Assembly: GCA_951406725.2 (NCBI GenBank)
Contig: OX597833.1
Location: 38,192,001 to 38,256,000 of the forward strand
Direction: 5' to 3'
Source of the DNA: Octopus vulgaris
Taxonomy: Eukaryota
Length of the DNA: 64,000 nt
The notes under the pieces were generated by a model, which ran no database searches, had not been told where the DNA came from, and worked only from the letters and a program-made list of their open reading frames with translations. The translations under genes and the position numbers were made by a program. This document shows positions 1,228-45,090 of this stretch, piece by piece; the first letter of the stretch is position 1; the number at the start of each line of letters is the position of its first letter.

Positions 1228-1417
1228 ATATTACAACAGTATGTTTGATCTTGGAGAACTAATTGGTGTGGATTATATTCCGGGTGGTGATGTAGAGAAC
1301 CTTACACTTTCAAAACAAGTCCTCCTCTTGACTAACATATCTACAGTTTTGGCACAGACACTCTTTGAATTAGGTACTGGTCAAAAGGGATCTCATATAA
1401 AAGCAAACAGTTCTATA
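1228..1417 (+). CDS. NCSTN: Nicastrin internal coding exon (first in window; ectodomain)
   Basis: Acceptor ttttcag|A and donor ATA|gtaagt. Encodes (x)YYNSMFDLGELIGVDYIPGGDVENLTLSKQVLLLTNISTVLAQTLFELGTGQKGSHIKANSSI, which aligns with recalled human nicastrin KYYQSIYDTAENINVSYP...LADVATVLGRALYELAGG...VQADPQT. Enters phase 2, exits phase 0. Upstream exons lie outside the window. Confidence 0.93.
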
Positions 1418-19818: not shown

Positions 19819-19921
19819 ATTGTGAAAGCTAATTGGATGCAGGGTAGAGATCGTCAAGGCCTGTGTGTAATCGCTCCCACGTACCTCACTGATGCCATAT
19901 CTCCAGCTTTTATCATAGATG
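19819..19921 (+). CDS. NCSTN: Nicastrin coding exon (ectodomain)
   Basis: Acceptor tttatacag|ATT and donor G|gtaata. 103 nt, phase 0 to 1. Encodes IVKANWMQGRDRQGLCVIAPTYLTDAISPAFIID vs human YSWVQG...RCVRSTARLARALSPAFEL. Confidence 0.93.
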
Positions 19922-23266: not shown

Positions 23267-23459
23267 CCTGAAAAGATGAATGGCAAAGTTCACCTTGGTG
23301 GAACAAAAACTGGAAGAAATGTCATTAAGTATTTTGTCGGGCATGGTAACAACTCTACCAGCTCACTGCTTTACTACTAATAATAATAATGCCTTAATGA
23401 TTGTTTGTATGTCTTTCTCACTCACATCTTCCTTTTATCTCTCTTTCTTTTCTCCAAAG

Positions 23460-23563
23460 ACTACGATTGGTTGTCCGGTAAATATTCTACTTGGACTGAG
23501 AGTATTTGGGACAATGATGCAATGTCTGTACGTGTTTTTCTGGTTCCCAGTAATAAACTACAG
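23460..23563 (+). CDS. NCSTN: Nicastrin coding exon (juxtamembrane ectodomain, YSTWTES motif)
   Basis: Long pyrimidine tract then ccaaag|AC, donor CAG|gtatgg. Phase 1 to 0. Encodes DYDWLSGKYSTWTESIWDNDAMSVRVFLVPSNKLQ vs human [30 protein letters not shown], a diagnostic nicastrin motif. Confidence 0.96.
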
Positions 23564-23831
23564 GTATGGTTTCACCAGTCTTTGATCTCTTCAAAAATGT
23601 CTTCACATGATTTGATTTTTTTTCACTGTTCTCTTCTTCTTTGTTTAAATTTACAATATTAGTTTATTATTGCTGTTTTAATTTTACAGGAGTGCTGAAT
23701 ATGTTGTGGATAGAGAAATCATTGTGCTGACTCACACACTGTTGTTAATAATAATAATAATAATATTATTCATTTTATATTTATGGCTTTGTTTTTCAAG
23801 ATTCCTGGTGTGAAATTGTGTGTTGAAACAG

Positions 23832-24140
23832 ATATTATTATATTTTGGGATGATGGTCACTTTTTTTTTGCCAAATTAACACACGCACTATATATTAGTT
23901 CTTCACTTCAGATTTATTTTTTTATTGTTCTTGTTTTATGTCCTTTGAGAACAAGAGGTGACCCATGAGATGGAGAGAGTTGCTGAAGAGGTTACAGGAT
24001 GTGTGACAAAAGATTTCCAAAGAAAGGACATAAAATAAGAACAATAATAAAATAAATCTGAAGTGAAGAGGAATATATAGTATGTATTTATTTGGCACAA
24101 GAAGAGAAAAAAATTACCATCCCAAATATAACAATAATAT
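23832..24140. repeat. Long inverted repeat (about 115-bp arms, about 76-bp spacer)
   Basis: Left arm ..cttcacttcagatttattttttattgttcttgttttatgtccttt pairs with right arm aaaggacataaaataagaacaataataaaataaatctgaagtgaag.. Confidence 0.85.
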
Positions 24141-24162
24141 TAGTATTAACAATTTTATATAA

Positions 24163-24452
24163 GCATGCATGGTCTAGTGGTTTGGGTGTTGCACTCATGA
24201 TTGCTAGATTGTGGGTTTGATTCCTGGACTGAGTGGCGCATTGTTTTTGAGCAAAACACTTCATTTCATGTTGCTCTGTGATCATTTCATCTGACTTGTG
24301 GCACACTTGTGCACCTGTTCAGGCAATGTCGATTTGATGGTGAGAGTGAGCTAATGTACAACACGTACATTTGATCACTATAAACAAATCATTTGTGCAG
24401 GTCGTTCAGTCAAGCTAAACCCTCATACATCATCTTTGATGGGAGATTTCAT
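24163..24452 (+). mobile_element. tRNA-derived SINE (third family)
   Basis: Head tggtctagtgg..ggtttgattcc, core ttgagcaaaacacttcattt. Reverse-strand relative near 46085-46350. Confidence 0.7.
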
Positions 24453-26301
24453 CATAAAGGCAGAGATACATTTTGAATGAGGTATTATCAATAGAATGTG
24501 TTTAGTCTTCTACTCTACTTTTGGAATTACCTAAACTTTTTACAATGAAGATGATAGCCATTCTTAATGAGCTACAGGTCTAAATTTTCCAAGAACAGAA
24601 TATAACTGATTGAAATGGCTTTATTAACTACAAATTTTTACTCTAAAAATTAACTCTAGCAGGATTTGATTTGAACTCCAAGTATGAAAGATCATAACTA
24701 AATACTGCAAGGCATTTAGTCTGGCACTTTTGTACTGATTCTGGTGTCCGTCGACCTTATTAATAATGTAAAATAACATTATTATTTGCATGTATAATAT
24801 ATGCGTGTATGTACTTGCATATATATGTGTTGTGGTTGTTTTTAGTCCCGTATCGTGAAGTGGAGTGGGTTTAGTTAATATAGTAACAACTAACTTGATT
24901 GTTGGTTTCAAACCTGCACTGTAATATCTAGAGAGGCCATGTCTAGTGATGCACAACTAATGTCCCCCACCTCTCGGTAAAAAAACCCAATTAAGTACAT
25001 TGTGGATGGATATATATATATAATCATCATTTAACGTCTGCTTTCCATGCTGACGTGGGTTGTTTTTTTTTCTGTGCTTGCATGGGTTTGGTGAATATTC
25101 TCTAGTACAGCTTTTAGCCATTTGTCACAATCTTTTGTGATCTCTGTCTTGAGGTTCAACCTCTTATTTCTTTATTGCCCACAAGGGGCTAAACATAGAG
25201 GGGACAAACAAGGACAGACAAAGGGATTAAGTCAATTACATCTACCCCAGTGCGTAACTGGTGTTTAATTTATCAACCCCGAAAGGATGAAAGGCAAAGT
25301 TGACCTTGGCGGAATTTGAACTCAGAACATAACGGCATTGAAATACCGCTAAGCATTTTGCCCGGCATGCTAACGTTTCTGCCAGTTCGCAACCTCTTGG
25401 GAGCAGTCTTCACCACTTTGTCCCATATCTTTCTTGGTTTTAATCTTTCATTGGTTCTGTCCATTTGGAACATTTGACATTTCTTTACACAACTTACCTA
25501 CTCCATATGTATCACTTGTCTTAACAATGGCATCTTATTGCCACATTTTTGTTATATGCATTAAGAGATCATATGAATGATGGTATAACTAAATTAAAAC
25601 ATGATTGCCAGATATAGATCTGTTTAAGAGGGAAATCCAGGTTATTTTTGTAGTTTATTTCACTTGTGCTGTGTCAGTTTGATCTTTTTGTTCTTATTTT
25701 GCTATTGATAAAGCTTCTACTGCTTATCTTCTGGCTTTTCTTTTTTTAGAGATCCTATGTAGGCAGTGTTGCTATCCAGTTTTTTTATTTGTGTTATAAT
25801 GGCTCCTTGTAAAAGAGTGGTCACATCTAGCCCAAATATTCTATCTGTTTTACTGACTAGATTCAGCCTCTCACACCTACCATGTAATGTCATTCTAAAA
25901 ATAAAGTGTCACATCATTGAAATCCCAAAGTTGTGAAATAATGCATGGTTGATTCAAACCAATGTGAATGGATAAGCATTTCTTTTGACAGTAATCTGAA
26001 TTCAAGCTGTCAAATGGCTAGAACAACTTTTCCACAATTAATTGTTTTAGTTTCGACTCAAGGTCTCAGATCAAGTCGCTTGCCAAACAAGTACAGTTCA
26101 AGCCATTTTGGGTGTCTTCTACTTTAGCCCTGAGCCATCTCAGTGGATTTGGTAACAGAAACTAAGAGAACCCATTCTGTGTGGATTGGGTAAACAGAAA
26201 CTGAATGAAACTTGTCGTATATATATACATTTATATGTATGTATATATGTATGTATATATATACTTATGTATATATATATATTTGTGTGTGTATATATTT
26301 A

Positions 26302-26353
<52 letters not shown>

Positions 26354-26375
26354 AATATATACATATATTTTCTGT

Positions 26376-28290
26376 GAGACTTGCATATCACCTGTGTAGC
26401 TGGCAAGGGTGGCTATCTGGGCAGTTGAGGGCCTATCTGAAAGGGCCACTATGAAAAGCAGTAGTCCTAAGACAGTGCCGTGTGGAACACAACTTACTAT
26501 TTGTGTTTTCATTGAGGTGGCTCCATTGGCCACTATTGCCTGACATATCTTTCAGAAAGTCATGTAACCACTATCCAAGTTTAGCAGCTATGCAGAGATC
26601 ATGCAGTTTGTGGCATATCATACCATGATCCACTTTATCAAAAGCTTTCATAAAATCAAGATACATTACTTCCACTTTTGAGTTGTTGAGTAACTGCCTC
26701 AACACCCAGTCATAATTTTCTAAGAGCTGGGTTGGGCAGCTCCAACTTGGTCGAAAGCCATGCTGGATATCACTCCACAAGTTATTTTCTTCAAGGAATG
26801 CGATTAGTTTCCCTCTAACTATCTATTCCATGACTTTGCTAATGTGTGAAGTCAGAAAGGTAGGCCTATAGTTTTTGGCATCTGCTCTGCTTCCCACTTT
26901 ATGGATGGGCATATTATTCTCTCTTTCAGCTTCCTTGGCAGTCTGCCATTTGAAAGAAATCTCTGAAAGAGAATCTGGAGTGGTTTTGCCAGGGCACGCT
27001 TACACAATTTGATGAGGATTGCTGGGAAACCATCAGGACCAGTATTCGAGTTTTTATCCACCTCATCTATGGCTAGTAGTATATCTTCTTCACTCATGTC
27101 GATGTATTCCATCGTACTGCCTCACTGGTTATAGATGAGGCGGCAAAGATGTCCGCTAGTTTGTTCACTTATCTGTGTTCTAGTGGGGTGGTAAAGACAC
27201 TTTTTTAATTGGTCATTTTGTACCTATCTGATCCTTGTTGGACTTTCTGCGAAGGAGCTATCCTTTTTGGAAGAGGGGTCCTATCTTGCAGCGTACTAAG
27301 GCTGTTTCTTTCGCAAAATAAAAGAAGGCCTTTGGGTTTGACTTAATGTTTTTATAACCCAGGCTTCTTTGTCTGCTCTCTCCCTCACATAGAATTTTTT
27401 AGGCAGGACCTTTCACTACTTTTGGGATGTTGATTGAGTCGATTTGCAACCTTTGTCCGTCATCTCACGAGGATCTTCCTCTTGCTTGGAATCTTGTTCC
27501 TATTTGTTTTGGCCTTGTGCTCTGGTACACATTTCTGGCATATGTCTTGCATAACAGACATGGAATATTCTAGTTTCATGCCAATGTCTGGTGTGGAGAG
27601 ACATTTTGGCCAGTACTGTATGAGGATCTCTTTTTGGATCGATTTCCAGTCTGCTTTGTGGAAGTTCAGATTGGAGAGATTTTGGGTGCTTCCTTTAGAC
27701 TGTGTGTCTTTGGCTACTTTCAGCCCAAACATAGACAGCTCTATTATGTTGTGATCCGAGACAAATGTCGGCATCACTTTCACATCATGAATGATGTTCA
27801 TATTGTTTATGAAGCAGAGATCCAAAATGTTATTTGCCCTAGATAGTCTGAGTACAACTTGCTCCATGAATAGGGCATTGGTGAGGTTGAGCAGGGACTC
27901 CACCTCTGCTTGTTTGTAATGAGTCATTCCTGAGAGCATGAGGCCTTCAGACCATTTGATGTTGGGGAAGTGTCAATTATTCATAAGAAATACACTCACG
28001 TGGTGTTCCTGAGGATTTCTGTAATTCCTGTGAGGCAATCTTCAAGCTTGCTTATATATGGTTTTGAGCATCTGGTTGGCAACTTGTGTTGCCTATGACT
28101 ATATTGCATTGTCTTATGTATACAATTATAGTGTCACATACTGAATTTGAGTATGACAGCAAAACCTGGGGTATGAGGTCATCTCGGATGTATACAACAA
28201 CTCCTTCTGTCTGTTCACAGTATGGTATATTTTGGTACGTGTTCTTCATCCTCTATATCAGGGCTGAGGTGAATTTCCAGGAGTGCTATG
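26376..28290 (-). mobile_element. CR1/Jockey-group LINE ORF2 remnant (endonuclease + RT), pseudogenised
   Basis: Fragments NILDLCF..SDHNII, NLNFHKADW, TGPDGFPAILIKLCKRALAKPL, QHGFRPSWSCPTQL..YLDFMKAFDKVDH and VPHGTVLGLLLFI, split by frameshifts and stops. Confidence 0.88.
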
Positions 28291-29691
28291 CATAGGGCAT
28301 GACCAGATGATGCTTTTTATGTGCCAACAGCACGGAAGCCAGTCAAAGCGGCACTGGCATTGGCCAAGTTCGGATGGTGCTTTTTGTGCTTCCGGCACAG
28401 GGCTCTCAACTACAATTTCCATTTGATTTGATTTTGATATTGCTGATGTTGATGGACTTCACTCAATAGGTTTCCTCAAGCACCGCATGTTGCCCTACGA
28501 TCCAAGGTACTTTTGAGCGGACTGGTTTTGCAACACTAGTGTAGGTTACAGCTCTGGTCTCACTTTATTTGCTGGGTCTTCTCAGTTGCAGCATATCTCC
28601 AGAGGTCTTTGTTTTATGTCATTGCCTCTGTGAGACCCAACATTCAAAGGTCATGCTTCATCACCTCATCCCATGTTTTCCTGGGTTGAAGAAGTGGCAC
28701 TTCTTCAACCATCTCTCCTCGTCCATCCACAGTTCATGACCATACCAATGCAAACATGTCTCTTGCACACCACATCTGATGCTTCTTATGTCTAACATTT
28801 CTCTCAGGGCGCTTACACTCTATCGTATGTGTACACTGACATTACACATCCAGTGGATCATGCTAGCTCCATTTCTTTCAAGCCTTCAGCAGTCATGGCC
28901 TATGTTTCACTGCTGTGAAGCATGGCAGTTTGCACACATACATCATACAATCTACCTTTCACTCTGAGCGATAGGCCCTTTGTCACCAGTAGGGGTAGAA
29001 GCTTTCTGAACTTTGCCCAGGCTATTCTTATTCTAGTGGCAACACTCTTTGAGCATCCACCTCCACTACAGACCTGGTCACCTAGGTAGCGGAAGCTATC
29101 AACTACTTCTAGTTTCTCCCCCTGGCATGTGATGTAGTCTGTTTTCTGAGCATCTGTGGTGTTTATTGCCCCTGTGCATTTGCTTCACATGAAAGCTATC
29201 TTCCCGGTTAATCTTCCTTTGATTTTGCTGCACCTCTTTTGTGTCCATAGCTTACACTGGGTACATCATATGGAATTTCTACCTACACCTTTTCTACAGA
29301 TCAAGCAGGGCCACCTACCTGAAGGGGTGTGTGATATGTTTGCTTTCCTACTTACTAGAACTTTGGTCTTTGCAACATTAACTCTAAGGACCTTTGATTC
29401 TAAACCTTGCTTCCAAATCTGAAATTTCTTCTCTAGTTCTGGTAGTAATTCTGCTATGAAGGCCAGATCACCAGCATAGAGGAGCTCCCAGGGGCAACCT
29501 GTCTTGAATTCTTCAGTTATTGCCTGGAGGACTATGATGAATAAGAGGGGGCTGAGGGTTGATCGTTTGTGGACCCCTACTTCTACCCGGAATTCTTCAC
29601 TATACTCATTTCCAATCCTAAACCTACTGACAGCATCACTGTATAGGGCATGTACAGCCCTTATTAACCATTCGTCAATCCCCAGTTTCAT
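28290..29691 (-). mobile_element. RTE-clade LINE, 5'-truncated (RT C-terminal half + 3' region)
   Basis: ORF 29266-29691 encodes EVGVHKRSTLSPLLFIIVL..WELLYAGDL..GLESKVLRVNVAKTKV, with FRYLGD downstream. Its 3' part equals the family C repeats. Confidence 0.88.
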
Positions 29692-30199
29692 GTATGTATG
29701 TATATATCATCATCATCGTTTAACATCCACTTTCCATGCTGCCATGGTTTGGATGGTTTGACTGAGGACTAGTGAGCCAGAGGCTGCACCATGATCAGTC
29801 TGATCTAGCAAAGTTTCTACAGTTAGATGCCCTCCCTAACGCCAACCACTCCGAGAGTGTAGTGGGTGCTTTTACATAACACCTGCACAAGGGCCAATTA
29901 GCTTAACCCACAGCCCGCCCTTTCTTTCCCCACTCTCGCCTCCCCCACCTCTCTACACCATCACAACACACCACACACCACTACTCCTTACACCAAACCA
30001 CACAACACACCACCACACACATCAGCACTGACCCACATTTTCACACCTACACACACACACACACACGTAAAGATCACCAGCCCACTTCCACACGCACATA
30101 CAAACTCTCTTATATACATGCACACTTTTGTTTTGAGATCACCACTACTTTATTATCTCCCCTTCTCCCTGTTTGCTTTTGATTCTGTTAACTACACTG

Positions 30200-31003
30200 T
30201 ATAGTAGGGTTAGTGGAGCACTATTTGTACAAAAAACAGCACCACGATGCAATTCGCTCTGCTTGAAATTTGGAAAGGACAGGCTGTACTGCTTGGCATT
30301 TGTGCCGGATGCTCCAGTACGAACATTCTAGAGTGTTTGGGTGTGAATTTGAGGACAGTAGAATCCGAGGACATGTACCAAGCATAATAAAAATCAAGCA
30401 TCTTATCAACATCATGGTGTTTGGTGTGATCACAAGTGATGGTGATGTTATGCCGCCATTTGTCTTCCTACACTGCCTCATACTCAACAGAGAGGCCTAC
30501 ATCAAGTGCCTGGAAGAGGTAGTGCTGCCCTGGGTGAAGTGGACAGCTGCTCGAACATCCTATGTCTGGCAACAGGACTCTGCATCATGCCACACAAGCA
30601 GGAGAACCTAGTCACGGCTATCACACAATTTCTGTGACTACATCACTCCTAATATCTGGTCGCTTAACTCCCCAGACTGCAATCCCCTTGATTATTATGT
30701 GTGGGGCACAGTTGAGCGAGACACCAACAAAACTCCTTGTAACACACTATAGATGAACTGAAGGCAAGTATTAGGGCAGCATTCACCAACTTAAACAAGG
30801 AGACCGTCTAAAAGAGTTGCAAGAGATTCCGAAGTTGCCTGGAGGCCGTGGTTGAAGCCAATGACACTTTTATGGAATAAATTTATTCTTTAGAATTTCA
30901 GGATATTTTTATGTAATTTTGGTAAATATATGTTAAAATGAGATGTCAGTGCTATTTCCATTTTTGTGTAATTTAGATGACAATTTATTCACTACACTCT
31001 GTA
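30200..31003 (+). mobile_element. Internally deleted Tc1/mariner-superfamily element (maT/DD37D-like)
   Basis: Encodes KHLINIMVFGVITSDGDVMPPF..YVWQQDSASCHTSRRT and W.LNSPDCNPLDYYVWG. Ends ..cactacactctgTA. Confidence 0.85.
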
Positions 31004-31252
31004 TACATACATATATATCTATATCTGGGTGTGTGTGTAACATTGTCTGGACATCATGTGATTCTAAATGAGTTTCACTGTCATATAAGCAGTGATATGT
31101 CTAAAAACAGGTCTGAACTTGGAGCGAAATATCGCCTTGCTTGGAAGACATTTTTTATGACAGGAATGTCATTTGGCCATAGTAAATCTGCCTTAACAAA
31201 GTTCATTCAACTCTTACAAGTATGGAAAAGTGGTCATTAAAATGATGATTAT

Positions 31253-31610
31253 ATAAGAAAAACAGATGAATGGATTATGTGGTATTGCTACAGTTGCTCT
31301 GTTAAGAGTCTTTGTTGTGATGTAAGCATAGTACAGGTATGCTGTAAGCACAGCATCCATGCGATTACATGCTACTCAACTTGTAACTCATCAGGCAAAC
31401 CAAATAAAGAAGTTGATAGTGTGTTGATTAATCACTGTTACTGCGCTATTTGGTTAGCCTGATGAGTTGAGAGTTGCATAACATATTATGTAATCTTATG
31501 AAAGTTGTGCATGCTGCATAGCTCACTGTACTATGCTTATGTCATAATAAAGACTCTTAATGAAACCACTGTAGCAATACCAGATAACCCATTTGTCTGT
31601 TTATTATTAT
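31253..31610. repeat. Imperfect palindrome of about 360 bp (fold-back MITE-like)
   Basis: Arms pair from aacagatgaatgg..ggtattgctacagt..ttaagagtcttt..taagcatagtacag..aactcatcaggc to their reverse complements. Centre tgattaatca at 31425-31434. Confidence 0.9.
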
Positions 31611-32481
31611 TTTATTAAGCCACATCTAAGTTTCCATTCATTGTTGGATTTTTTGGATGCATTCTGTGCTATGATAATGGATTACTGAACTGTCTGTTTT
31701 GCATCATTCTGCCTAACCAATTTGTGGCATGCTTCATTTTTATATGCCTCGACTCTTTATGGATCGCGTGTAATCAAAGCGATATATATTTACATATATA
31801 TATGTTATTTGTGTGTCTATTTGTCTATGTATATATGCATGTATCATTTTAAGAATACTATGTTTGCTTTAACATTTGCTTTGAAATTATGTTTTGAAGT
31901 TGATTTCATGAAACTGTTTGTATTGTTTACAATTGTGTTACTGCTTAATTGGTTTCATTGTTATTGTTTTTACATTTACTAAAATTGTTTCTATTCATGT
32001 AACAAATGCTCCCCAAATCAATTTATCTATCCATTTATCTATCTACTATCTATTTCTATCTCACGATATACATATATATATTCACAGAATGGTTACAAAA
32101 TAAAGCGCTTGGTGTTACATTAAATAATATGTTCAAAAATTATATAGAAGTACAAACAAATGGAAAATACACACACAGAATGTCACCAAATTTTCATCAG
32201 TTATTGTCAAAAGTATCAGGTGTGAAATTTATTATGATCCTTTGGATGATAACTGATGAGGATTTAGTGACATTCTATGTATATATTTTCCATTTCTTCC
32301 ATTTGTTTGTACTTTTCGCTAATTGTTGTAGGTCCTCATGTTGTCATAAATAAATGCACATACACATTCTGTCAACTCTCCTGCTGTTAATCTGGCAGAA
32401 CCTTCAGGATGTGGCAGATGGAAGGTGAAAGGGCTGCAACAACACTAAATACTTGTTTTTCAGCTCAGTAGATTGAAGCAA

Positions 32482-32552
32482 GAGCGAGGTCATTGCCAGT
32501 ACATTCGAGCGAGGTCATTGCCAGTACATTCGAGCGAGGTCATTGCCAGTAC
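32482..32552 (+). repeat. 25-bp tandem repeat, about 2.8 copies, inside an RTE 3' fragment
   Basis: gagcgaggtcattgccagtacattc starts at 32482, 32507 and 32532. Confidence 0.9.
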
Positions 32553-32754
32553 CGCCTGACTGGCCCCCATGCAGGTGGCACGTATAAAGCACCCACTACA
32601 CTCTCGGAGTGGTTGGCATTAGGAAGGGCATCCAGCTGTAGAAACTCTGCCAGATCAAGACTGGAGCCTGGTGCAGCCATCTGGTTGCCAGCCTTCAGTC
32701 AAAATCGTCCAACCCTTGCTAGCATGGAAAACAGATGTTAAATGATGATGATGA

Positions 32755-32788
<34 letters not shown>

Positions 32789-33171
32789 TCACACATATAC
32801 ACGTGTCTCTGTGTGTGCATCTCCTTGTCTTGATGGTTCATGGTAGTTGTAAGCAAGCTACATCATCATATATAAAAAGACTCCTTTGTTTCCAATCTTC
32901 AGTGAAGACATGTCTAGTTGCAGGGAAATTTTACCTTGTCTGGAAAGAAGGTGAGAGTTGGCAAGAAATAGCATCCAACCATAGAAAATCTGACTTAACA
33001 AATTCAATCTGACCCATGAGTCCATGGAAAACTGACCATGGAAGTGATGATGATATAAATATTCTTCGCTCTAATCACATCCAAATGAAGAATGCTTTGT
33101 TTAGCACTTAACATTTGTCCATCTGTATTCATTTGGATATAGAAACAGGACAAGAAATACTTGAGTATGAA

Positions 33172-33678
33172 TACAAGGGGGTGCTTTTCAGCACCCCCTC
33201 GTATTTTATCTTTGGATAAAAGAAAATACAAGAGGCTCAGTTAATTATTTTATTCATCATATTCCCCAGAACAGTGGTTCCCAAACTTTTTTGGGCTGCC
33301 ACCCCCTTGACATCCAGGCCACATTCCTAGCGCCCTCACCCCATCTAACCATCACATAGACCTCTTTCTGAAGCAAATTCAAAGCAGCTGTATTTCACAA
33401 ATGTAAATTAACCTTAATGAGCCCATTATTTTGTTGTTTTTACAGGAATCACTCCCCCATTATTGCCCCACTTTTCTTCAATGCCCCCTTGGAACTTTCC
33501 ACTGTCCCCAAGGAGGCAATACCACCCACTTTGGGAACCACTGCCCTAGAAGATTCACATGCTTATTGCAGCAGCCCTTCAGTTTTTCTAAGCCCTGTAA
33601 AAGAACTTGGAAGGTTAGGCCTCCAACCAGGCTTTTCATGATACCCTTAACGCCAGAACTTTTCAGCACCCCTTCATA
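33172..33678 (-). mobile_element. Mariner-derived MITE interrupted by a hAT-like MITE
   Basis: Reverse copy of 1636-1853 (shared ccttcagtttttctaagccctgtaaa), split at 33272-33543. Confidence 0.8.
33272..33543. mobile_element. hAT (Charlie-like) MITE
   Basis: TIRs cagtggttcccaaa / tttgggaaccactg. 8-bp TSD ccccagaa / ccctagaa. Confidence 0.88.
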
Positions 33679-33931
33679 TGTATATTCATTCTAAGTTGAT
33701 AATTCCCTTCATTGCTGTTCTGTATTTCCCTCCTTTATACATTGGTTTTGGTGGCTAAGAATAAATATGTTAAGGCTACAGAATATTATCATGATCCTTC
33801 TTAGTTTCCATTGGTCAGTTTTGGTTACATTTTATTGTTGAGAATACTTTTAGAGCATTTAGTATTATAGCTGGTTCTAGCCTGTTTTAATATGGTCAAG
33901 CGATTGATCCCTGATAGAAATAGGCAGAGGA

Positions 33932-35185
33932 CATCATCATCATTCATCATTGTTCGACCGTGGTCGAGACAATGGAATTTACCATGCAACACCAGACTTC
34001 ACGGTCCATCATAGCATTATGGAGGTCCTGTTACTAGATGCCTGTATCCCGGGAGATTACATCAGGGTAGGAGAGTGTGCGCCCTCTGGTGTTGCGAGTA
34101 GATGACTTCCAGAGGAGAAGAGTAGAAATTGCCTCGTTTTCAGCTCTACAACAATGTCCAGCAAACTGGACTCTCCTACTTTTCACAAGAGACGACACAG
34201 GTGGTAGTTTCCCATATATTTGCATTTTGGTTGGATGACGCTTCCAAGAGAGATTTTGAGCTCTCATAAGGAGGCGAGTGTAGGTTCCATCCAACCGCCT
34301 CTCAAGCTTCTTTGATAACATTCAGGTTTCTGAGCCATATAGTAGAATTGGTTCAACTGTGGCTTTGAAGATTTCAAGTTTGAAGTCTCTACTTAGATTT
34401 GATGACCAGATCTTATGCATGTCATTACAGGCTGACCAGGCCATACCCTTTCTAGTTAGAAAATCTTTTCCAGATTATGATATGTATGACCCAAGATATT
34501 TGTAATCAGAAACCATATTTAAGGGCGCATTGTTGAGAGTATGGATGATGCAATCACTGTTGGACAGGCACTTGTTTATATATTCAGTCTTGGCCTCATT
34601 GAGGTAAAGACCTACACAATTTGAGGCTTGTTCGAGAGATTGTAAAAGAGACTGGGCATTGGAGAAAGAATCACTAAGAGCGATGTCGTCAGCAAAGTCA
34701 GTGTCTGTCAAGTATTCAGCTGGGTATCTGGAACTTCTTCTAGGTTTTATTTCAAAGCTCTTGCCAGAAATGGTATCAACTGACATACGTAGCACATAGT
34801 CAACGACAATGATGAAGAGAAATGGGGCGAGTGTGTCTCCCTGCAGTATTCCGGCTTTGATTGAGAAAGATGATGTTTCTCTGTCAGGGGTTAAGATGGT
34901 TGAAGACGTATCTGTGTTGAGGACCTTGATGGCAGAAATGATTTTGTCTGGTATCCCATAGAGCTTTCAAACATCTTGTACCTATCTACAGAGTCGAACG
35001 CTTTAGAAAAGTCTACAAACACCATTGGAAGATCGCGATTAAATGCTTTTGATTCTTCAATAAGTCTGCATAGGCATAGTATCTGGCTCAGCGTTGAGCG
35101 CCCATGTCTGAATCCATTTTGGTTCTTTTGGAGCAAAGGTTCAACAAAAAGGACGAAACGATTTAGAATCAGTTTGTTGTACATT
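33932..35185 (-). mobile_element. RTE/RTEX-like LINE, 5'-truncated, relatively young
   Basis: Encodes QNGFRHGRST..FVDFSKAFDSVDR, GILQGDTLAPFLFII, TDFADDIAL, YKYLGSYIS and RRVQFAGHC. (ATG)n tail, few disruptions, CpGs retained. Confidence 0.9.
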
Positions 35186-36025
35186 GTGCAGGGGAAGAAA
35201 GGTAAAAAGATTGATAAGACTATTAAAACAGTGGAGTTTGAAATTACACTGTAATTAGTAAGGCTATTAGATTAAATTAGTAGCCATTATTTTATATAAA
35301 CCACCAGTTTATATAAGTGTGCAACAGACTTGTGTTTGAAGTGTAGAATCTAAGATGCCTTTTTCATATGCAAGGTAAATGGCATTAAATTACATGACAC
35401 ATACACCCTCAAAATGAACTGACAGGGGGACTTCTACAGGGTCACTTCATTTGCTAGAAACAGATAAATATCCTTTAAACTACACACCAAAACCCTAATG
35501 ATTTTGTACACTCTACCATAACAAGCATATAAGACATTTTAACCATGAAACTGGGCACCCATAAATATGTTTGTCTCTACCTTTGTTTCGACTTCATGTA
35601 ATGGTTGTAAACAAGCATCATCACCATACAAGTGATGTTGTTTATTTCCAATCTGCCATGAAAATCATGTCTGGCCATGAGGAAGTATTACTTTACCTGG
35701 AAACAGGTAAAAATTGGTGACATCAAAGGTATCTGGTTATAAAAAATCTGCTTCAACAAACTTCGTCTGACTCATGCAAGCATGGAAAAGCGGATGTTAA
35801 ATGATGATGTGTGTCATTTATACAAATGACATATGAGCTTGAACCACCAAATGCTGTTTTATTTCATCTTTTCTATTTTTGATTTTATTAAGAAAAAAAA
35901 GACTTTTTTTTATATTGTCAAAAGAAGTAAAAAAAATCTGCTTGCATTGCCATTATTATTATTATTATTGTTATCATTATTGTCAATTTTTTCATTATTT
36001 TTGTTGGCTTATGTTTTTCTTCCAG

Positions 36026-36148
36026 GCAGTAACACTGTTTTTGGGTGTGCTTATCCTGTGCCTGTCAATGGTGATCGTCTATTTCCTAAACAACCGGGCA
36101 GAAGTCATCTTCCCTACCACATCAGCTTTCCCTGCTCATGATGGCTAA
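36026..36148 (+). CDS. NCSTN: Nicastrin terminal exon A (transmembrane helix + cytoplasmic tail, isoform A)
   Basis: Acceptor atgtttttcttccag|GCA, phase 0. Encodes AVTLFLGVLILCLSMVIVYFLNNRAEVIFPTTSAFPAHDG*, in gap-free register with human [35 protein letters not shown] at 36376-36381. Confidence 0.88.
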   Translation, partial: AVTLFLGVLILCLSMVIVYFLNNRAEVIFPTTSAFPAHDG

Positions 36149-36375
36149 ATAACCTGCAATTTCCCAAATAGGCTTGTTCTCTTCTACTCATATTTGCATA
36201 GGCATGTATTCTTCAACTTACCTCTGTGCACATCCACCTTAGCATTGTCAGTGATTCTGTTCTTAATGTTGATGTTGATGCTGCTGCTGCTATTGTTGCT
36301 GCTGCTGCTTTTATTTGTCTAATTTATTGTCAAATGTATGTGGGTGGGATAGATCATACTTTGGGGCTTTCACAC

Positions 36376-36381
36376 AATAAA
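36376..36381 (+). terminator. Candidate polyadenylation signal for terminal exon A
   Basis: AATAAA about 230 nt after the exon A stop, followed by T-rich sequence. A second AATAAA lies near 36476. Confidence 0.45.
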
Positions 36382-36507
36382 GTTTATTATAGGAAAAGGT
36401 AAGAAATTATTTACATTTTTATTTAAATAAGCTACTGGTTTCAATTGTTTTAAAAAATGATTTAGTCATGCTGAAATAAAAGGAAAATTAAATTGAAATA
36501 AACTAAA

Positions 36508-36723
36508 TTAACCCTTTAGCATTTAAACCAGCTATATCCAGCCAAAATAGTTTACTTGTTTTATGCTCAAACTGGTCAGATCCAGCCTCTCATGCCAACC
36601 CTGCAATAAAATTAAGTTACCTCATTGAAATCTCAAAGCTACAAGACGATGCATGATTAATTTGAAACAATGTGAATGAATAAACATTGGTCTTGACAGA
36701 ATAATGTGAATGCTAATGGTTAA
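36508..36723. mobile_element. piggyBac-like MITE (reverse orientation)
   Basis: ttaa-ccctttagcattt ... aatgctaatgg-ttaa. Confidence 0.85.
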
Positions 36724-38870
36724 ATTAATTGTTAGGAAGAGCATCCAGCCATAAAAACTGTGTCAAATTATTCAGTGGAGCTCAATACAGTCTTGCAGCT
36801 ATCCTGGATGTTAAATGATGACGGTGATGAAGACGACAAATATCAGTTGTGAAAGTTCACATGATTTTCTTATAAAAGTCACACTGTATTGTATTTTTTA
36901 AATTTTTTATTGTTGCTAGGTAAGTAGACAGCTGTGGTAGTAGCTAACTAGTATCCAGCAACAGTCAGAAAGAAAGTGAAGAAACACCATATGATTTTTA
37001 TAAGAAAAATACATGAATTTCTTCAACTGATAGTGATGAAGATTAATTTAATTTATTTCAGTTTACTTTCTCTTTTATTTTAGTATGACTAAATCGTCTA
37101 TTTAAAGTAAATGAAACTGGTAGCATATTTAGATAAAAATATTTTTCTTTCTTTCTCTATGATAAAGTTCTCAAAGCATTTTCTTATTTTTGTCTTTATA
37201 TATGTTTGTGTTTGTGTGTATATGAATGTGTGTTTATATGTGTGTGTGTATATGTATATATGCATGTATCCGTGTGTGTGTGTAATGTTACCAGTGGGAG
37301 CTTAGCACTACAACTCAAACACTTAACTGTACATGTACACCCAATATAATCCAACAAGAGAGCTTCTACATGGTCACTCAGTTTACTAGAAATAGCAGGC
37401 AAATATCCTTAAGTCATGCACTATTTCTTAATCATTTTGGAAAAGGAAAGACATTAGACAATGCAGTCTTATATACACTTGGCCTGAAAAAGAAATGGAT
37501 GGTTATATCTGGAACACTTTGCTCATTAGTCTACTGGATTAGGATCAAAACAATAATATAACAAGAAGACTTCTTATGAGATTTGCTTAACTTGCTAGAA
37601 AGAACAACAAAGTATCCTTCAAATCAAAACCCTGCTATCTTAAAAATGTAAGACACATTGGATAATGTAATCCTAGATACACTATGTCTGAAAAGCAATT
37701 GTTTGCTCACAGCTGGATCATCTTTAATCATTTAATCATATGTCTGCTCAGTCAAGGCAAACCTGGGGTTAAACAATCCCCAATATTTCTATATTCTTGT
37801 CATCTAAATAATTATCAAACCTACTCAAACGAGCACAAATCACCATCAGTTTCCTTGAGCCCCAAAGTTTATTAACTTGACTCCATGTCTCGTGCTTGAA
37901 ATTGAGTGTTAGCTGAGAAAGCCACAATGGACTGTTGGTTAACATAATTGTGCTTATGTTGCCTAAGGAGCCTCAAGAAAAGGCCTGAACATCTCATTTT
38001 TTTTTTATCTACATAAAATCTTTGTTGTACTTAGACAAAAAGAAATTTATGTACATTTTGTAAATCAAGTTACTTAAAAGTAGTCTTTTTTAGAAATGTA
38101 TTTTATTCACATATTCAAGAAAATGAAGATTAGTGTGTGTATATGTTGGACATCCTTGCTCTGTATTTCATGTTTCTGTGTATTGTTTTTGAAAATTTTT
38201 CACAATGTATTTATCCTCCTTTTCCACCTCTTACCTCTCCCTCTCTGTGACACCAACAGTATTACTGTAAAAGAAAAAATTAAACGAAGTGGAGTAGGTT
38301 TGTAATTCAAAGACTGTGTGATGTGAGACTATTGCACGTAGGAATTTAAATTGGGTACATGGATTCAAGCTTGTTCAGACTTGACTGTTAACTTCTCAAA
38401 ATTCACTACCATAAATTCATTGTAACCATTGCAGAAATGAACACTTTTGTTTCAGTTGAAAGACACAACTGATACTTTATTTTCATTGTTTGAAAAGAGA
38501 AAGAAAACATTTCCTTTTTAATGACATTAATTTGAATTTAACCCTTTGTGTACATGATCAAAGAGCTGTTAAATGTAGCTGTAAAAGAAGGAATGGTTGT
38601 GTTCATAGTCATTGCAGGTCCTCATTAACAGATGAGATTGATACAGATGAAGCTCATTTTAAACATTTGTAGATTGATCTCTGTAGGAAAATCATTGTTG
38701 GGGTTTCTAATGGATTTCAATTGGCGTTTTACAGCTGCAGGCCATTGTTGTTGTTTACCATTTGATGTTTGGTCCTTCCTTTATTTATCTTATGTTTTTT
38801 TATGTCCATGCAAGAATAAGATTTTGGATGATCCTACATACCAACTCAAATCACATCGGAGAACCCTCAT

Positions 38871-39095
38871 TTAACCCTTTAACATTCACATTCTGTCAAA
38901 AGTAATTCTTATTTATTCACATTGATTTGAATTAATCATGCATTATCTTGTACCTTTGAGATTTTGACATGGTAACGGTTAATCTTTAGAATGATATTAC
39001 AGGGTTAGTGTAAGAGGCTAGATCTGGCTAGTCTGAATATAAAACAGGTGAAATATTTTGGCTGGATGTGACTTGTTTAAATGCTAAATGGTTAA
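38871..39095. mobile_element. piggyBac-like MITE (forward orientation)
   Basis: ttaa-ccctttaacatt ... aatgctaaatgg-ttaa. Confidence 0.85.
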
Positions 39096-39481
39096 GACAT
39101 TTATGAACAAAAACCTATATTATTCACTTTTCATTTATTTCTTAATAGTATTGTCTATTATGAATTGTTGAAAAGTTTCATCATACGTAGCAGCATGGCA
39201 CAATTCAACATAATTTCTATGTATTTGTTCATTCATTCTCAAACAAGTTGATTTAATTTTGATCAATACAGGAAGCAAAACAGATGACATCAGTGATGAT
39301 GGCTTCTTAGAAAAGACATTACGACTGCTCCAATTTCTCAAAAACTAACATTATTTCAGTTGTAATTAATATCCTTTGACATCAGTTATCTTCATAAGCA
39401 ATGTTACATGTATTTTTTCATAATCTTTGTTGTTGTTTTTTTATTATTAAACATTTATTGTTTTTCTTCTTTCTATTGCAG

Positions 39482-39592
39482 ACTCTCATTTTGTTACTGG
39501 GTATCATCATCTTTGTGGTCTCTTTCGTTGTGGTCTATGTGTTAGTAGAGAAAGCAGATATTATTTTTCAGACTGCTCACAAACACTACTAA
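39482..39592 (+). CDS. NCSTN: Nicastrin terminal exon B (transmembrane helix + cytoplasmic tail, isoform B)
   Basis: Acceptor ttcttctttctattgcag|ACT, phase 0. Encodes TLILLLGIIIFVVSFVVVYVLVEKADIIFQTAHKHY*, in the same register as the human TM segment, with KADIIF matching KADVLF. Confidence 0.88.
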   Translation, partial: TLILLLGIIIFVVSFVVVYVLVEKADIIFQTAHKHY

Positions 39593-40129
39593 CTAGCTTG
39601 AACCTGAATCTAAACTAACTTTATCTAATTTAACTTTAAAAAAACTAAACTACACTTCTAGTAAGCCAATATGGCAAAGCTTATGTCAATCTATTTGTTA
39701 GCACAGAATACTTCTTGCTTTCCTTTCAATTTTGTTTTGGTAAGGCAAATGAAGCAAAAGAACAAAGAAGAAATTTCTCACACGAGGGACCAAAGAACCA
39801 TGAACCAGTTTCAACATCAAGAATTGATAATGATTTTTTTCCTCTTTCTACTAAACTATCATCTTTTCATTTCCCTCCTCTCTAAATACACACACATACA
39901 CACATATATTTATATATACATATGCCCCTCACACATACACACATTTATATATACATACGCACCCCCCACACACACATTCACACGCAGACATTTTGTGTAT
40001 ATGTTTCCAATAACAAATGTGGATGTTATAATTTCAACTTTTCCATGTAGGTTGTCTACTTAATAATAAGGAGTATATAAAATATTTGTTCATATTTATG
40101 TGCACTGATGTTAGCAGTATCACTACCAT

Positions 40130-41990
40130 TCTATATCCAAGCTTGCATGGGTTGGGTGGGTCTTCTCCAGTACACCATCTCACCATTTATTGCAATTGTT
40201 TGACATCTTGAGATCAGCTTTCACTGCTTCTGTGTCTTCCTTGGTTTTTCCCCTTCCATTGTCTCCTTCCACTCAGGTTGCTTGCACTTTTTTTTTTTTA
40301 CCTAACTAGCACCCTCCATATGTATCAAATGCCCATAACAAGTGTTTTCTTTCTTGTACACAACATCTGAATCCTCTTATACTCTTGACAGCTCATTTAT
40401 GTTCTTTTCATGCACATAACATTGCACGTCCATACTTGTTTCATTTCATTCCTTTTCACATCTTCCACGTTCAGTGTCCATGTTTTGCTACCATGCAACA
40501 TCACACTTTGTCAACTGTTTTCCAGGTTAGTGAATCCCTTTGTTGCAAGCAAAATCAGTAGCTTCCTGAACTGGTTTAACCTCATCCTTATTCTGGTGTC
40601 TATGCTTTTGGAATATCATCCTCTACCATTATGTCACCTACTTAATGGAAGCTATCAACTTGTAGTTCATAGCTATGGAGTCTTTCAAGAATTTAAAGGA
40701 ATCCATTTCATAGGTGACCTTAATGTTCACTACTCATGCATCTGCTATATATGGAGTCTTTGCTTCTCTGTCTACCTGTTTGTGATCCCACTGCATTTGT
40801 TGTACTCTGGAAGTTTATATTTGATACACTGTGCAGAGTTACTACTTAACTTCTTTTCTGCATATTGAACAAGGCCGCTTCCATTAGAGAGGTGATCATG
40901 CTTGATGTGCCAACTAGAACTTTTGTCTTTGAAAGGTTTATTTTGAAGCCTCTAGATTCTTGCTTCCATGTTTGGAATATTTTTCATAATTTTCATTTGA
41001 TCAGCTACGCGAACTAGATCATTCAGAAGTTCCCTTGGATAGACAGTCTAAAGTTCTGTGAATTGGCTGGCCAATTAGAAACAATTAGAAACAGTAGTGA
41101 GCTAAGAACCAAATCTTGATGAATGCTTATCTGCAAGATTTTTCACTTAACTCATTACTAACTTTAATTTTGTTGGCAGCATCTCTCTACATCACTCACA
41201 CCATCCACTTGCCTTCACCTAGTTCTTTTAGCGATGACCTGACTACAGAACACGATGCTCCAAACTGCCTCTCATCTAAGCAACTTGTCTTTCTTGTCAC
41301 TTGTACTATAATCCTTTCTGTTACTTTTACTACCAGGTTCATCACCTTGATGACTCTGTCGTTATTTCTTTCTGCGGCATTTCCTTTGCCTCTGTTCTTG
41401 TTGATGATAGTGCTACACCAGTCATTAGGCATGACTCATCCTTGTACTACCTGATTGACTACACAAGTGATTAGCACATGTCCAACTTCACTGGATATTT
41501 TCAGTATCTCACTAGCTACCTTTGATGGTATCGCTACTTTCACTGCCTTCGTGTCCTCAATTGCACTTTTGACCATGCTGCTGTCAACTTGAACAGCTGC
41601 TTCGGATTTTCCTGGAGTAGAGCGCCTCTCTCATTCTGTTCAGTCAGTGATCTCATTGTGCCCCTTTCTTCTTGGTGTCAGTCACAATAAGTGTGTCATT
41701 TTCTTTCCATACACACTTTTCCCCAATGACCTCTTGTTTCATACTGAAACGCTTCTTTGCAATTCAGAACACCTCTTTCATCTTCTTTCTTTGCTATCTT
41801 TATCTGACATCTAGCTTCTATTTTTTTAGCTACCTGATATGATTTCTTGCTTCCCATTTTCTCCGAATCTAGGTCAGTCCTTTAGCTTTTATGGCAGTAT
41901 CTGAAGTATCACCATGTTACATTTCTGTCAGGCTGGAACTCCTACTCACAATTTCTGTTTGTGACTTACACAGAAGCTCCCAGTTGTCCT
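40130..41990 (-). mobile_element. Degenerate RTE-clade LINE remnant
   Basis: ORF 41196-41432, MPNDWCSTIINKNRGKGNAAERNNDRVIKVMNLVVKVTERII..LDERQFG, resembles the RTE RT N-terminus. Similar to 28290-29691. Confidence 0.7.
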
Positions 41991-42657
41991 AAGTTAGATA
42001 TCTATCATGTATATATATACACACACACACACACACATACACGTATACATCTGTAATATATTATATGTGTGTGTGTATGTATGTATACATATATATAAAA
42101 ACACACACACCAGGTATTGAATTCACATTAATCAGAAGACCAGCTCTACTTGTTTCTTTTTGTTAACTCAAATGATAATAAAAACATATTCTCATCTTCA
42201 GCTTCTTTTGTTTTCATCCTCTTCCAGTTTTTTCTTCCACAACTGAGATTTTCCTTGCGTGTTATTGTCATCTTCTCACTTCATTTCACTGTCCTTAACA
42301 GATCTCTCCCCATGATCAGCACCACTGGAATCGTCTAAATTCTTGTTCCTCACCACATTCTGTTTCTGCAACTGCTTTGATTCCTTTCAAACTACTACTA
42401 GATTTGGGTCCTGTATTGCTTGTTCCTGATGAAAGTGCAGGCTTCTGCAAAACATTAAAAGTGTGGGAGAGTGTTTTGGTGGAGAAGATTAATAACTTGT
42501 TGTTTAGCCCTGATATGAACACAACTGTTGATCAAATAAAGACATTCCAACCACCATTATTATCCTGTCTTCTTTTTTTCAGACAGGCTACCTACGACTA
42601 CATTTATTAAATGTGCTCTTCCTATATATATGTTTGTGTGTGTGTGTGTGTGTATGC

Positions 42658-42689
<32 letters not shown>

Positions 42690-45090
42690 CTTTAAATAGT
42701 AGTGCACAGTTGGGAAGATTTGGCTGCTATTTCTATTGGGGGAAGGTTCATATTGATTTGCAAAAAAAAAAATTCAATAATGCCTTGATGATTCAGACAT
42801 TTGGTTATATATTGGTTTCTGAATCTGTTCCTGCTTCAGATTCAGACTAAGGGAGAGACACAGGACTCAGTTTAATATCCCATCCCACACACCACCACCA
42901 CTACCACTGATTGTTCATAAGTTCTCATTTCTGTTCAGCATTGAACTGTTAACTCAACATTGTTATGCAAGAATAACTTATGTTAATGAAGTTGTGGGAA
43001 GTGTCTTCTGTTCTGCTTTAACCTCAGAATTTGTTAGAACTGTGCAGAAGTCTGTGTGTGTGTGTGTGTGTATCCATGGGGATAAAGTACTTTTCTTGAA
43101 AACAAGTGAAGGTTGGCAATAATTGGAAGGATATCTAAGTGTAGAATACCGCTGCACCAAGTCTAATCCAGCCTGTTGAAAATGCAGACATAAAGATGAT
43201 GATGAGGTCTTTCTGTGTATACTGGATCATTATCTCTCAGTATGCTGCCAGTAAAAATATTTGTTGATCATGCCTGTATCTTCGTCAATTGTTCATAGTG
43301 AAAGTCTGTGTTGTGTTGTCTATATGTTGAAAGACATACAGAAACACACACTCACCCCCCCCCCCCCCAAAAAAAAACAACTATGTGTATTATATATATA
43401 GTCTTTTTTGAAATTTGTGTTGCATTGTATTGACAGACTCATGCTTAAAATTCCTGCGTTTTTAATCAAAACTTGTTAGTTAACCATGGTGACAACACTA
43501 CCTATTTATGTATCTTTTACACACACACACTCACAATCGCTCGCTTTCAACAACTTTTTCTCCTCCCGTTATTGCAGACAGACAGAAATCAGGTTCGCTT
43601 TGATAAGATTGATGAAAGATATAAGTATCACTGAGAACAATGATAAACTTGAACATTTAATTGAAAATACTTTGTGGTATTTACTCTACTCAAGTATGCA
43701 CAGATATACTCATGTCATCACCATTGTAAATGCAGGGAATCAATGATTGAACAAATCTGTACTGTTTGTTTTCATCACTCAGATGTGGGTTGGACAGATT
43801 TGTAATTTTAGAGGGCTAACTTTCATGGGAGGAAAGGAGGAGTGTAGTATTTTAGTGTGGGTCTGTAGTGGATTAGACAAACTTGTGATAAGATTAAGGA
43901 AGGCAAGTGAGTTGGGAGTGCCTAGGTGGAAGTGGCATGAGATGAACCTGCTTTGAGGTGCAAAGACTGCTGTTGTTTGTACATTGTTGATACTGTTTTC
44001 CCAAAAAATAATTATATTTGGATTAAAACAATATTTTTTTTTTTTTTTTTGAGATTTAAAATTTTATTTCTGTCAGTAGATAAGAGATAGATTTATTTTC
44101 CTTTAGACTCAGTACATTCTGAAACAATTCTTTCTCACAAAATCTTGTATATAAATGGTTCTGTCTAGTCTATATATGAGTCACACAAATATGTACATTA
44201 TACACACACACATCCCTACCCTAATACTCTCTGTTAATCTCTCTATTTATATATTCTTACTGTAATAACCTTTTTCTCTCAGCACCTCACCTAAATTCAC
44301 CACCCTTTCTTCTGCTCTCTCTTTCCCTCTTGTGTGATGGGGATCTTTACTCATTATAAGTCAAATTTACATGTTAAACTTCACCAGATGTGTTGACATG
44401 AAAGAAGCATCTAGTACCCCTTATAAAATGGTTGGTGTTAGGAAGGCCATCCAGCTATAGAAACCATGCCAAAACAGAGACAATAGAGCAAGACATGGTC
44501 CTGTGATTTGTTGAACTGTTCAGCCAATACTAGCATAGAGAGCAGACATACAATGGATGATTGTGATGATGATGTTGATGTATGTGTTTCGATGTACAAA
44601 GAGGAGAAACACTATTCAATATATACAGTAGAATTTATTTGTTTGAATATAGTAATTTGCTTTGTTGCTTCTCTGAATTTTTTGCTTTGTACATTTATTG
44701 AAGTGACATGAAGCATTTGCTTGAAAGGAATACACATATCCTTTCTCTAATTCCATTTTCTATGTCTCTCTCCCCCTCTTTCTCCGTTTCTCATATGTGA
44801 CCATCGTCTATCTTTCTTTTCCTCACGTGATCATCTTTCTTTTCTTTAAGGACTAGACATATCCTATCTCTCTCTTCTATCTTTTCTCTTGTCAAAGAAA
44901 ATATTCCTCCAGCTTTTGCTATTTTATCCTCATTCTGGTCTAACGACCCTCCATGTTAGTTTTCATTTGTTTTCCTTGTATGTGTTCCCAACTTTGACCC
45001 TCCATAAATCCCAAATTTTATTTTGGTACTTATGGGAACAACTGTCTTTGAAGACTCATATTGTCATTCAATATATATATATATATATGC

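Follow-up and report, generated by a model that had tools for sequence, protein, structure and literature searches.

The transmembrane (TM) helix and tail of nicastrin are encoded in Octopus vulgaris by a tandem-duplicated exon, of which the upstream copy, exon A, bears a stop codon and is spliced onto the downstream copy, exon B, and skipping of A likely gives a second nicastrin with the same ectodomain and another anchor. We put the probability of this reading at about three in four. A preliminary description of the same DNA had also recognised the two copies, but took them for alternative terminal exons, each of which would end its own mRNA.

Results

Exon A is spliced onto exon B

The window, by which we mean the whole stretch of 64,000 nt that was analysed (OX597833.1, 38192001-38256000; G000:C20), has, 5-7 kb before its start and in the same orientation, two exons that match the nicastrin family profile; no other match to this profile was found among the 4 candidates scored in the genome. 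These PF05450 matches supply the peptidase-like ectodomain of a nicastrin. An exon within the window retrieves, at 100% identity, the 711-aa nicastrin-like isoform X1 of Octopus vulgaris, a protein that carries both PF18266 and PF05450 and whose last six exons map in order onto the window. Given the profile matches and the order of these exons, the window contains the 3' half of the Octopus nicastrin gene (Table 1). The translations of 36026-36148 and 39482-39592, each with its own stop, are as first described, as are the phase-0 donor at 23563 (CAG/GTATGG) and the strong acceptors of A and B, both of which are polypyrimidine tracts ending in CAG.

Table 1. Nicastrin exons and introns in the window (positions counted from its first nucleotide)
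Feature	Position	Strand	Basis
Exon for part of the nicastrin ectodomain, roughly residues 462-524 in the 711-aa model	1228..1417	+	AG/GT-bounded open exon; matches the 711-aa model
Nicastrin ectodomain exon, residues 603-636	19819..19921	+	100% over 34 aa
Last shared coding exon, WTES motif inside; phase-0 GT donor after 23563	23460..23563	+	Covered by spliced contigs
Exon A, 176-nt cassette: TM helix + 40-aa A tail + 53 nt of 3' UTR	36026..36201	+	Translation; joints in 4/4 runs
Exon A coding part, stop TAA	36026-36148	+	Translation
GC-AG intron between A and B, donor AG/GCATGT, acceptor polypyrimidine + CAG	36202..39481	+	Contig joints; CAI9737670.1
Exon B coding part: TM helix + 36-aa B tail; untranslated if A is included	39482..39592	+	Translation; XP_029647324.1, CAI9737671.1, XP_014778224.1
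Terminal-exon 3' UTR, shared; reaches 42002 or beyond, with more contig pieces up to 43200	39593..42002	+	Contig pieces

Transcript structure was read from 4 sequencing runs, one per study, which were compared as contigs over 23300-43200 and were classed as RNA by guess, not by record; in the pool of 20 runs holding the sequence, 14 were guessed to be RNA and none is recorded as such. The joint 23563>36026, with GT-AG borders, was present in 4/4 runs from 4 studies, and so was a second joint, 36199>39480, which with its 2 shared letters is equivalent to 36201>39482. In three of the four runs (X1, X3 and X13) a single unbroken record spans the shared exon, 36023-36199 and then 39480 onward, and the depth of the main A-to-B contig ranged from 21.6 to 91.4 across runs. 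The stretch removed begins with GC and ends at the acceptor of B, and is therefore a GC-AG intron; a database model of the same species, CAI9737670.1, crosses the same joint. Since 36201 is spliced to 39482, exon A is internal and not terminal, and since its stop at 36148 is followed by that splice, B becomes the 3' UTR of the common mRNA, with the stop sitting 53 nt upstream of the junction with B. This is an arrangement of the KRAS 4A/4B type, in which a stop in the upstream copy is followed by a donor, and inclusion of that copy turns the downstream one into 3' UTR. Exon A cannot be kept as a terminal exon, and alternative last-exon use is not supported as the main mechanism, as A is a stop-bearing cassette joined to B. 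A genomic deletion is an unlikely source of the joint 36201>39482, given that its contigs also lack the 12.5-kb upstream intron, that the acceptor is strong and that the joint recurs in 4 studies.

Genuine alternative last exons, with separate poly(A) sites for A and B, would never occur in the same mRNA, whereas the main contig joins A and B in every run. An AATAAA does lie downstream of A at 36376, with more hexamers to 36679, the GC donor is of a minor type that could be read through, and contigs at a depth of about 4-15 are found over parts of the intron between A and B. However, the intron before A has low-depth contigs as well (35100-35798, at a depth of 5.5-8.9); such intron cover fits pre-mRNA or DNA, and we hold it very unlikely that A and B are separate last exons. 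A separate poly(A) ending after A may occur as a minor third route, contigs being of a kind that cannot show RNA ends.

Several other features of these introns and of exon A were noted. Two dispersed repeat copies of about 190 nt, at 36508-36702 and 38890-39095, lie in opposite orientation within the GC-AG intron and are 80% complementary; this pair could fold the intron and move its minor-type donor nearer to the acceptor of B. The 12.5-kb intron contains high-copy repeats (24600-26000, 29000-30200, 32500-33300 and 34000-34400) with very deep RNA-type contig cover from other loci, and a near-perfect inverted repeat (23900-24069; 47-nt arms, 96%, 76 nt apart) begins some 340 nt past the shared donor. 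At 36026-36029, a second AG lies 4 nt past the acceptor of A (CAG/GCAG) and, if used, would make the first in-frame codon a stop. CAI9737670.1 (698 aa) relies on a GT donor and an AG acceptor inside A (window 36045-36171), by which most of the helix is removed, the frame is shifted and the protein is left with an incomplete anchor; it is likely a non-productive form or a mis-built model.

Relationship and age of the two copies

Exons A and B are two homologous exons in one gene. As first described, they align without gaps, with 12/29 residues identical and G7, I10, S14, Y19, A25 and F29 common to both. A TM profile was made from the 105 non-cephalopod nicastrin segments, among the representatives listed, in which a WxES-type motif is followed by 50 residues or more. 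The pieces holding B and A rank first among 2192 six-frame pieces of the window against this profile (E 1.8e-9 and 5.9e-9; the next is 0.39), and the two segments score almost alike, at 36.0 bits for A and 36.7 bits for B. Their best PDB match is the human nicastrin TM construct 2n7q, at a weak E of 0.055 and 0.26, respectively. At the DNA level, A and B agree at 12, 25 and 8 of 29 first, second and third codon positions (position 2 vs 3, Fisher p 1e-5), a substitution pattern that, judged from the letters, is that of protein-coding DNA.

Genome-wide searches with each peptide returned the places of A and B only, and the 1-kb flanks of A and B had no DNA similarity to each other (best E 0.12). 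The preliminary description had named an assembly artefact as a possible undoing of its proposal; an assembly duplicate, like a recent segmental copy, is ruled out by these unlike flanks, by third positions that are near random and by the single genome locus. Its suggestion of an old exon duplication with both copies under selection is borne out by the codon positions (25/29 vs 8/29) and by conservation across species, and A and B are supported as what appear to be old tandem duplicates in one gene, both shaped by selection on the protein.

At the protein level, A is identical to its O. bimaculoides counterpart at 40/40 residues and B at 35/36. In the Argonauta model the C-terminus is a B-type segment, also 36 aa long, which is identical to Octopus B at 19/29 positions and to A at 12/29; the nicastrin ectodomains of Octopus and Argonauta are 73% identical, and the last 7 residues of B have 0/7 in common. 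Among cuttlefish-type proteins with a C-terminus (a set of 17 members, one named Sepia pharaonis, from which 2 short fragments lacking the C-terminus were left out), 15/15 are A-type and 0/15 B-type, and their segment is identical to Octopus A at 23/29 positions and to Octopus B at 7/29, compared with 12/29 between Octopus A and its own B. A and the cuttlefish type share A1, F5, C12, M15 and E26, which are rare among the 105 outgroup rows, and the B segments of Octopus and Argonauta mostly hold the commoner states; the P-x-x-D-G at the end of the A tail is also conserved to cuttlefish. In the tree, the A rows group together with support of 85/77 and the B rows with 92/96. AU tests on 30 columns gave p values of 0.35 and 0.40, and a duplication after the octopus-cuttlefish split was not rejected (p 0.35). 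These comparisons point to a duplication that predates the split of Octopus and Argonauta and that is probably older than the octopus-cuttlefish split. A and B exons side by side are shown for Octopus only; a metagenome scan for other cephalopod genomic DNA gave 381 pattern matches, 0 of which were confirmed.

Evidence for a proposed B form

Since the stop of A precedes B, B would be translated only on skipping of A. Models of both forms, 711 aa for A and 707 aa for B, are found in NCBI/UniRef for O. vulgaris, O. sinensis and O. bimaculoides, as the isoform X1/X2 pairs XP_029647323.1/XP_029647324.1, CAI9737672.1/CAI9737671.1 and XP_014778216.1/XP_014778224.1, and the X1/X2 entries of O. vulgaris and O. 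sinensis match exons A and B of the window. The preliminary description had looked to two junctions for its confirmation: 23563>36026 was found in 4/4 runs, whereas 23563>39482, the skip joint, was absent among the 15 joints listed of 486 in the contigs of the 4 runs. The contigs of run X8 are broken on either side of A, and the A contig starts 27 letters before 23560; with 31-letter words, this overhang of 27 letters fits a branch into exon B (27) and not into unspliced intron (26), a one-letter difference that assumes k=31 and that any other non-G branch would reproduce. In 3/4 runs the contig passes through A without a break, which makes the B form minor in them, if present at all. When short proteins that join the shared exon to B were sought, 1 of 10 candidates matched, and this was an intron read-through from another species with no B junction.

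In-frame joining to the shared exon is seen for A in 4/4 runs and is suggested for B by the database models and the contig break in 1/4 runs; the earlier claim that one ectodomain can be joined to two anchors is supported by contigs for A and by database models for B. From the NCBI models in three Octopus species, the B-type model of Argonauta and the contig break in X8, we infer that skipping of A yields the B protein.

B could instead be a relic, an old last exon kept mainly as an acceptor and 3' UTR, with B protein produced only as splicing noise. The skip junction that was not seen directly among the joints listed would fit such a relic, as would the absence of B-type ends from the cuttlefish-type proteins, the unlike last 7 residues of B in Octopus and Argonauta, and the loss of a polar residue, T3, from Octopus B. 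However, given that the frame, the length and 19/29 residues of B have been kept between Octopus and Argonauta, that the outgroup profile gives B a score as good as that of A, that the codon-position pattern of A and B is like that of coding DNA and that the annotations of three species include B, we regard a relic as improbable and prefer a B exon that is translated when A is skipped.

The two helices

In human nicastrin, T672, G676, S683 and T687 form a patch facing APH-1, and the tail is dispensable for assembly (excerpts of PMC4726005); the mouse equivalents with the next tyrosine (T670, G674, S681, T685 and Y686) have two binding partners, APH-1 and the ER retrieval receptor Rer1 (excerpts of PMC2064021). 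By spacing, this polar patch corresponds to positions 3, 7, 14, 18 and 19 of the A and B segments, of which A retains 4/5 (T, G, S and Y) and B 3/5 (G, S and Y); position 18 is V in both, the commonest outgroup state (55/105). Each exon encodes the single TM helix with an APH-1/Rer1 patch that marks a nicastrin. Placed on a helical wheel, the two segments have the same residue at 6/8 positions of the APH-1 face vs 4/19 elsewhere (p 0.014), an enrichment that is not significant within the helix core (positions 1-22; p 0.06-0.11) and that concerns a face conserved in all nicastrins. Comparison of three A rows with three B rows gives 15 fixed differences, all of them 70 degrees or more from this face. 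As no fixed difference falls on the APH-1 face, both forms probably assemble and are predicted from their sequences to join APH-1 in gamma-secretase; the difference in assembly that the preliminary description had envisaged is unlikely.

The cytosolic end of the helix reads N-[NS]-R in A and V-[ED]-K in B, and the V22 of B, found in 2/105 outgroups, is followed by an acidic residue. Hydrophobicity of the TM segment is 3.24 in Octopus B vs 2.72 in A, and since Argonauta B, at 2.73, lacks the difference, it is ruled out as a conserved signal that separates A from B.

The stop of A also bears on whether the switch mainly sets the dose of nicastrin, the A mRNA being partly removed by nonsense-mediated decay (NMD) and the two anchors being functionally equivalent. 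At 53 nt from the junction, the stop lies on the NMD threshold of 50-55 nt (excerpts of PMC8339359), and the APH-1 face is kept in both helices. On the other side, in 4/4 runs the main RNA assembled is A-to-B, and decay in these samples can therefore not be strong; the conservation of A extends to cuttlefish, its tail end included, and 15 positions are consistently unlike between A and B. We therefore consider a switch of dose highly unlikely, the least probable of the readings weighed here.

We propose the following model. By the default route, which the contigs show, 23563 is spliced to 36026, the reading frame stops at 36148 and the GC-AG intron 36202-39481 is removed, leaving B as 3' UTR in an mRNA for the 711-aa A form. 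By a minor route, 23563 would be spliced directly to 39482 to give the 707-aa B form. Both helices keep the face that binds APH-1 and Rer1, and both forms would enter gamma-secretase; the two differ on the lipid-facing side, at the cytosolic end of the helix and in the tail. The likeliest effect would be on the location of the complex or its membrane contacts, rather than on complex formation, and the switch between A and B may thereby affect sorting, lipid environment or side partners.

Among the other subunits, five presenilin-family matches (63 candidates scored) all lie in one locus, G000:C11:65805042-65817076, which suggests a single presenilin gene in the octopus genome. APH-1 was not located in the genome by our search, in which locus L007 held no convincing APH-1 exon.

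Discussion

Nicastrin is regarded as the invariant subunit of gamma-secretase. In mammals, exon-skipping variants of nicastrin that truncate the protein have been reported. A switch of the nicastrin TM helix was the subject of no paper found in the open-access literature searched, and excerpts of PMC10970066 and PMC4034082 contain no mention of one. The belief that the pair was undescribed thus holds for the papers searched but not for the databases, as the X1/X2 isoforms stand in NCBI/UniRef. Both are database entries under automatic names, with no remark that their ends are paralogous TM exons.

The KRAS 4A/4B pair swaps the membrane-attachment end of the protein. Human KRAS has exon 4B in both mRNAs, where it is untranslated when the stop-bearing exon 4A is included (excerpts of PMC5945503), and octopus nicastrin is alike in having an upstream duplicated, stop-bearing exon whose inclusion leaves the downstream copy untranslated and whose skipping would let that copy be translated. 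In contrast to the lipidated tail of a soluble GTPase that is exchanged in KRAS, what differs in octopus nicastrin is the whole TM helix of a protease subunit; furthermore, the main form assembled is the one with the upstream copy, and a GC-AG intron separates the two copies.

Duplicated C-terminal exons are a recognised class, with 77/236 human tandem exon events being C-terminal and often coinciding with TM helices (excerpts of PMC8373072 and PMC9741552). NECTIN2, GNAO1 and OTOF resemble nicastrin in having homologous alternative C-termini from duplicated 3' coding exons, and in NECTIN2 the TM region is swapped. However, the excerpts ascribe human C-terminal swaps mostly to alternative poly(A) use (PMC8373072, PMC9741552), whereas octopus nicastrin combines a cassette with one shared 3' UTR. 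'NCSTN' occurs 0 times in the main texts of these two papers. As the splice architecture is well known in other genes, the surprise of finding it here is limited.

The variety of human gamma-secretase comes from PS1/PS2 and APH-1a/APH-1b, with one nicastrin (excerpts of PMC13507816). The human subtypes are like the proposed octopus case in that distinct complexes can arise when a subunit embedded in the membrane varies, but the variable human subunits are presenilin and APH-1, whereas in octopus one presenilin locus was found and the variable part is the nicastrin helix. A broader proposal can be made, namely that coleoids, with apparently one presenilin gene, have evolved gamma-secretase subtypes in a manner peculiar to them, through tissue- or stage-regulated skipping of A, so that the swapped anchor, with its APH-1 face kept and its lipid side and tail changed, would send the complex to other compartments or substrates, such as Notch as opposed to APP-family proteins. 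We offer this tentatively, as an idea more likely to prove wrong than right.

For annotation, the 3' UTR of the common mRNA contains a GC-AG intron, placed right at the NMD threshold, and pipelines may keep or drop the wrong form. A lineage that has long kept two versions of nicastrin's sole membrane helix offers a natural pair with which to probe the outward face of the helix and the tail. If skipping of A occurs, two forms of the protease would come from one gene, and gamma-secretase could diversify without gene paralogues in animals with large nervous systems.
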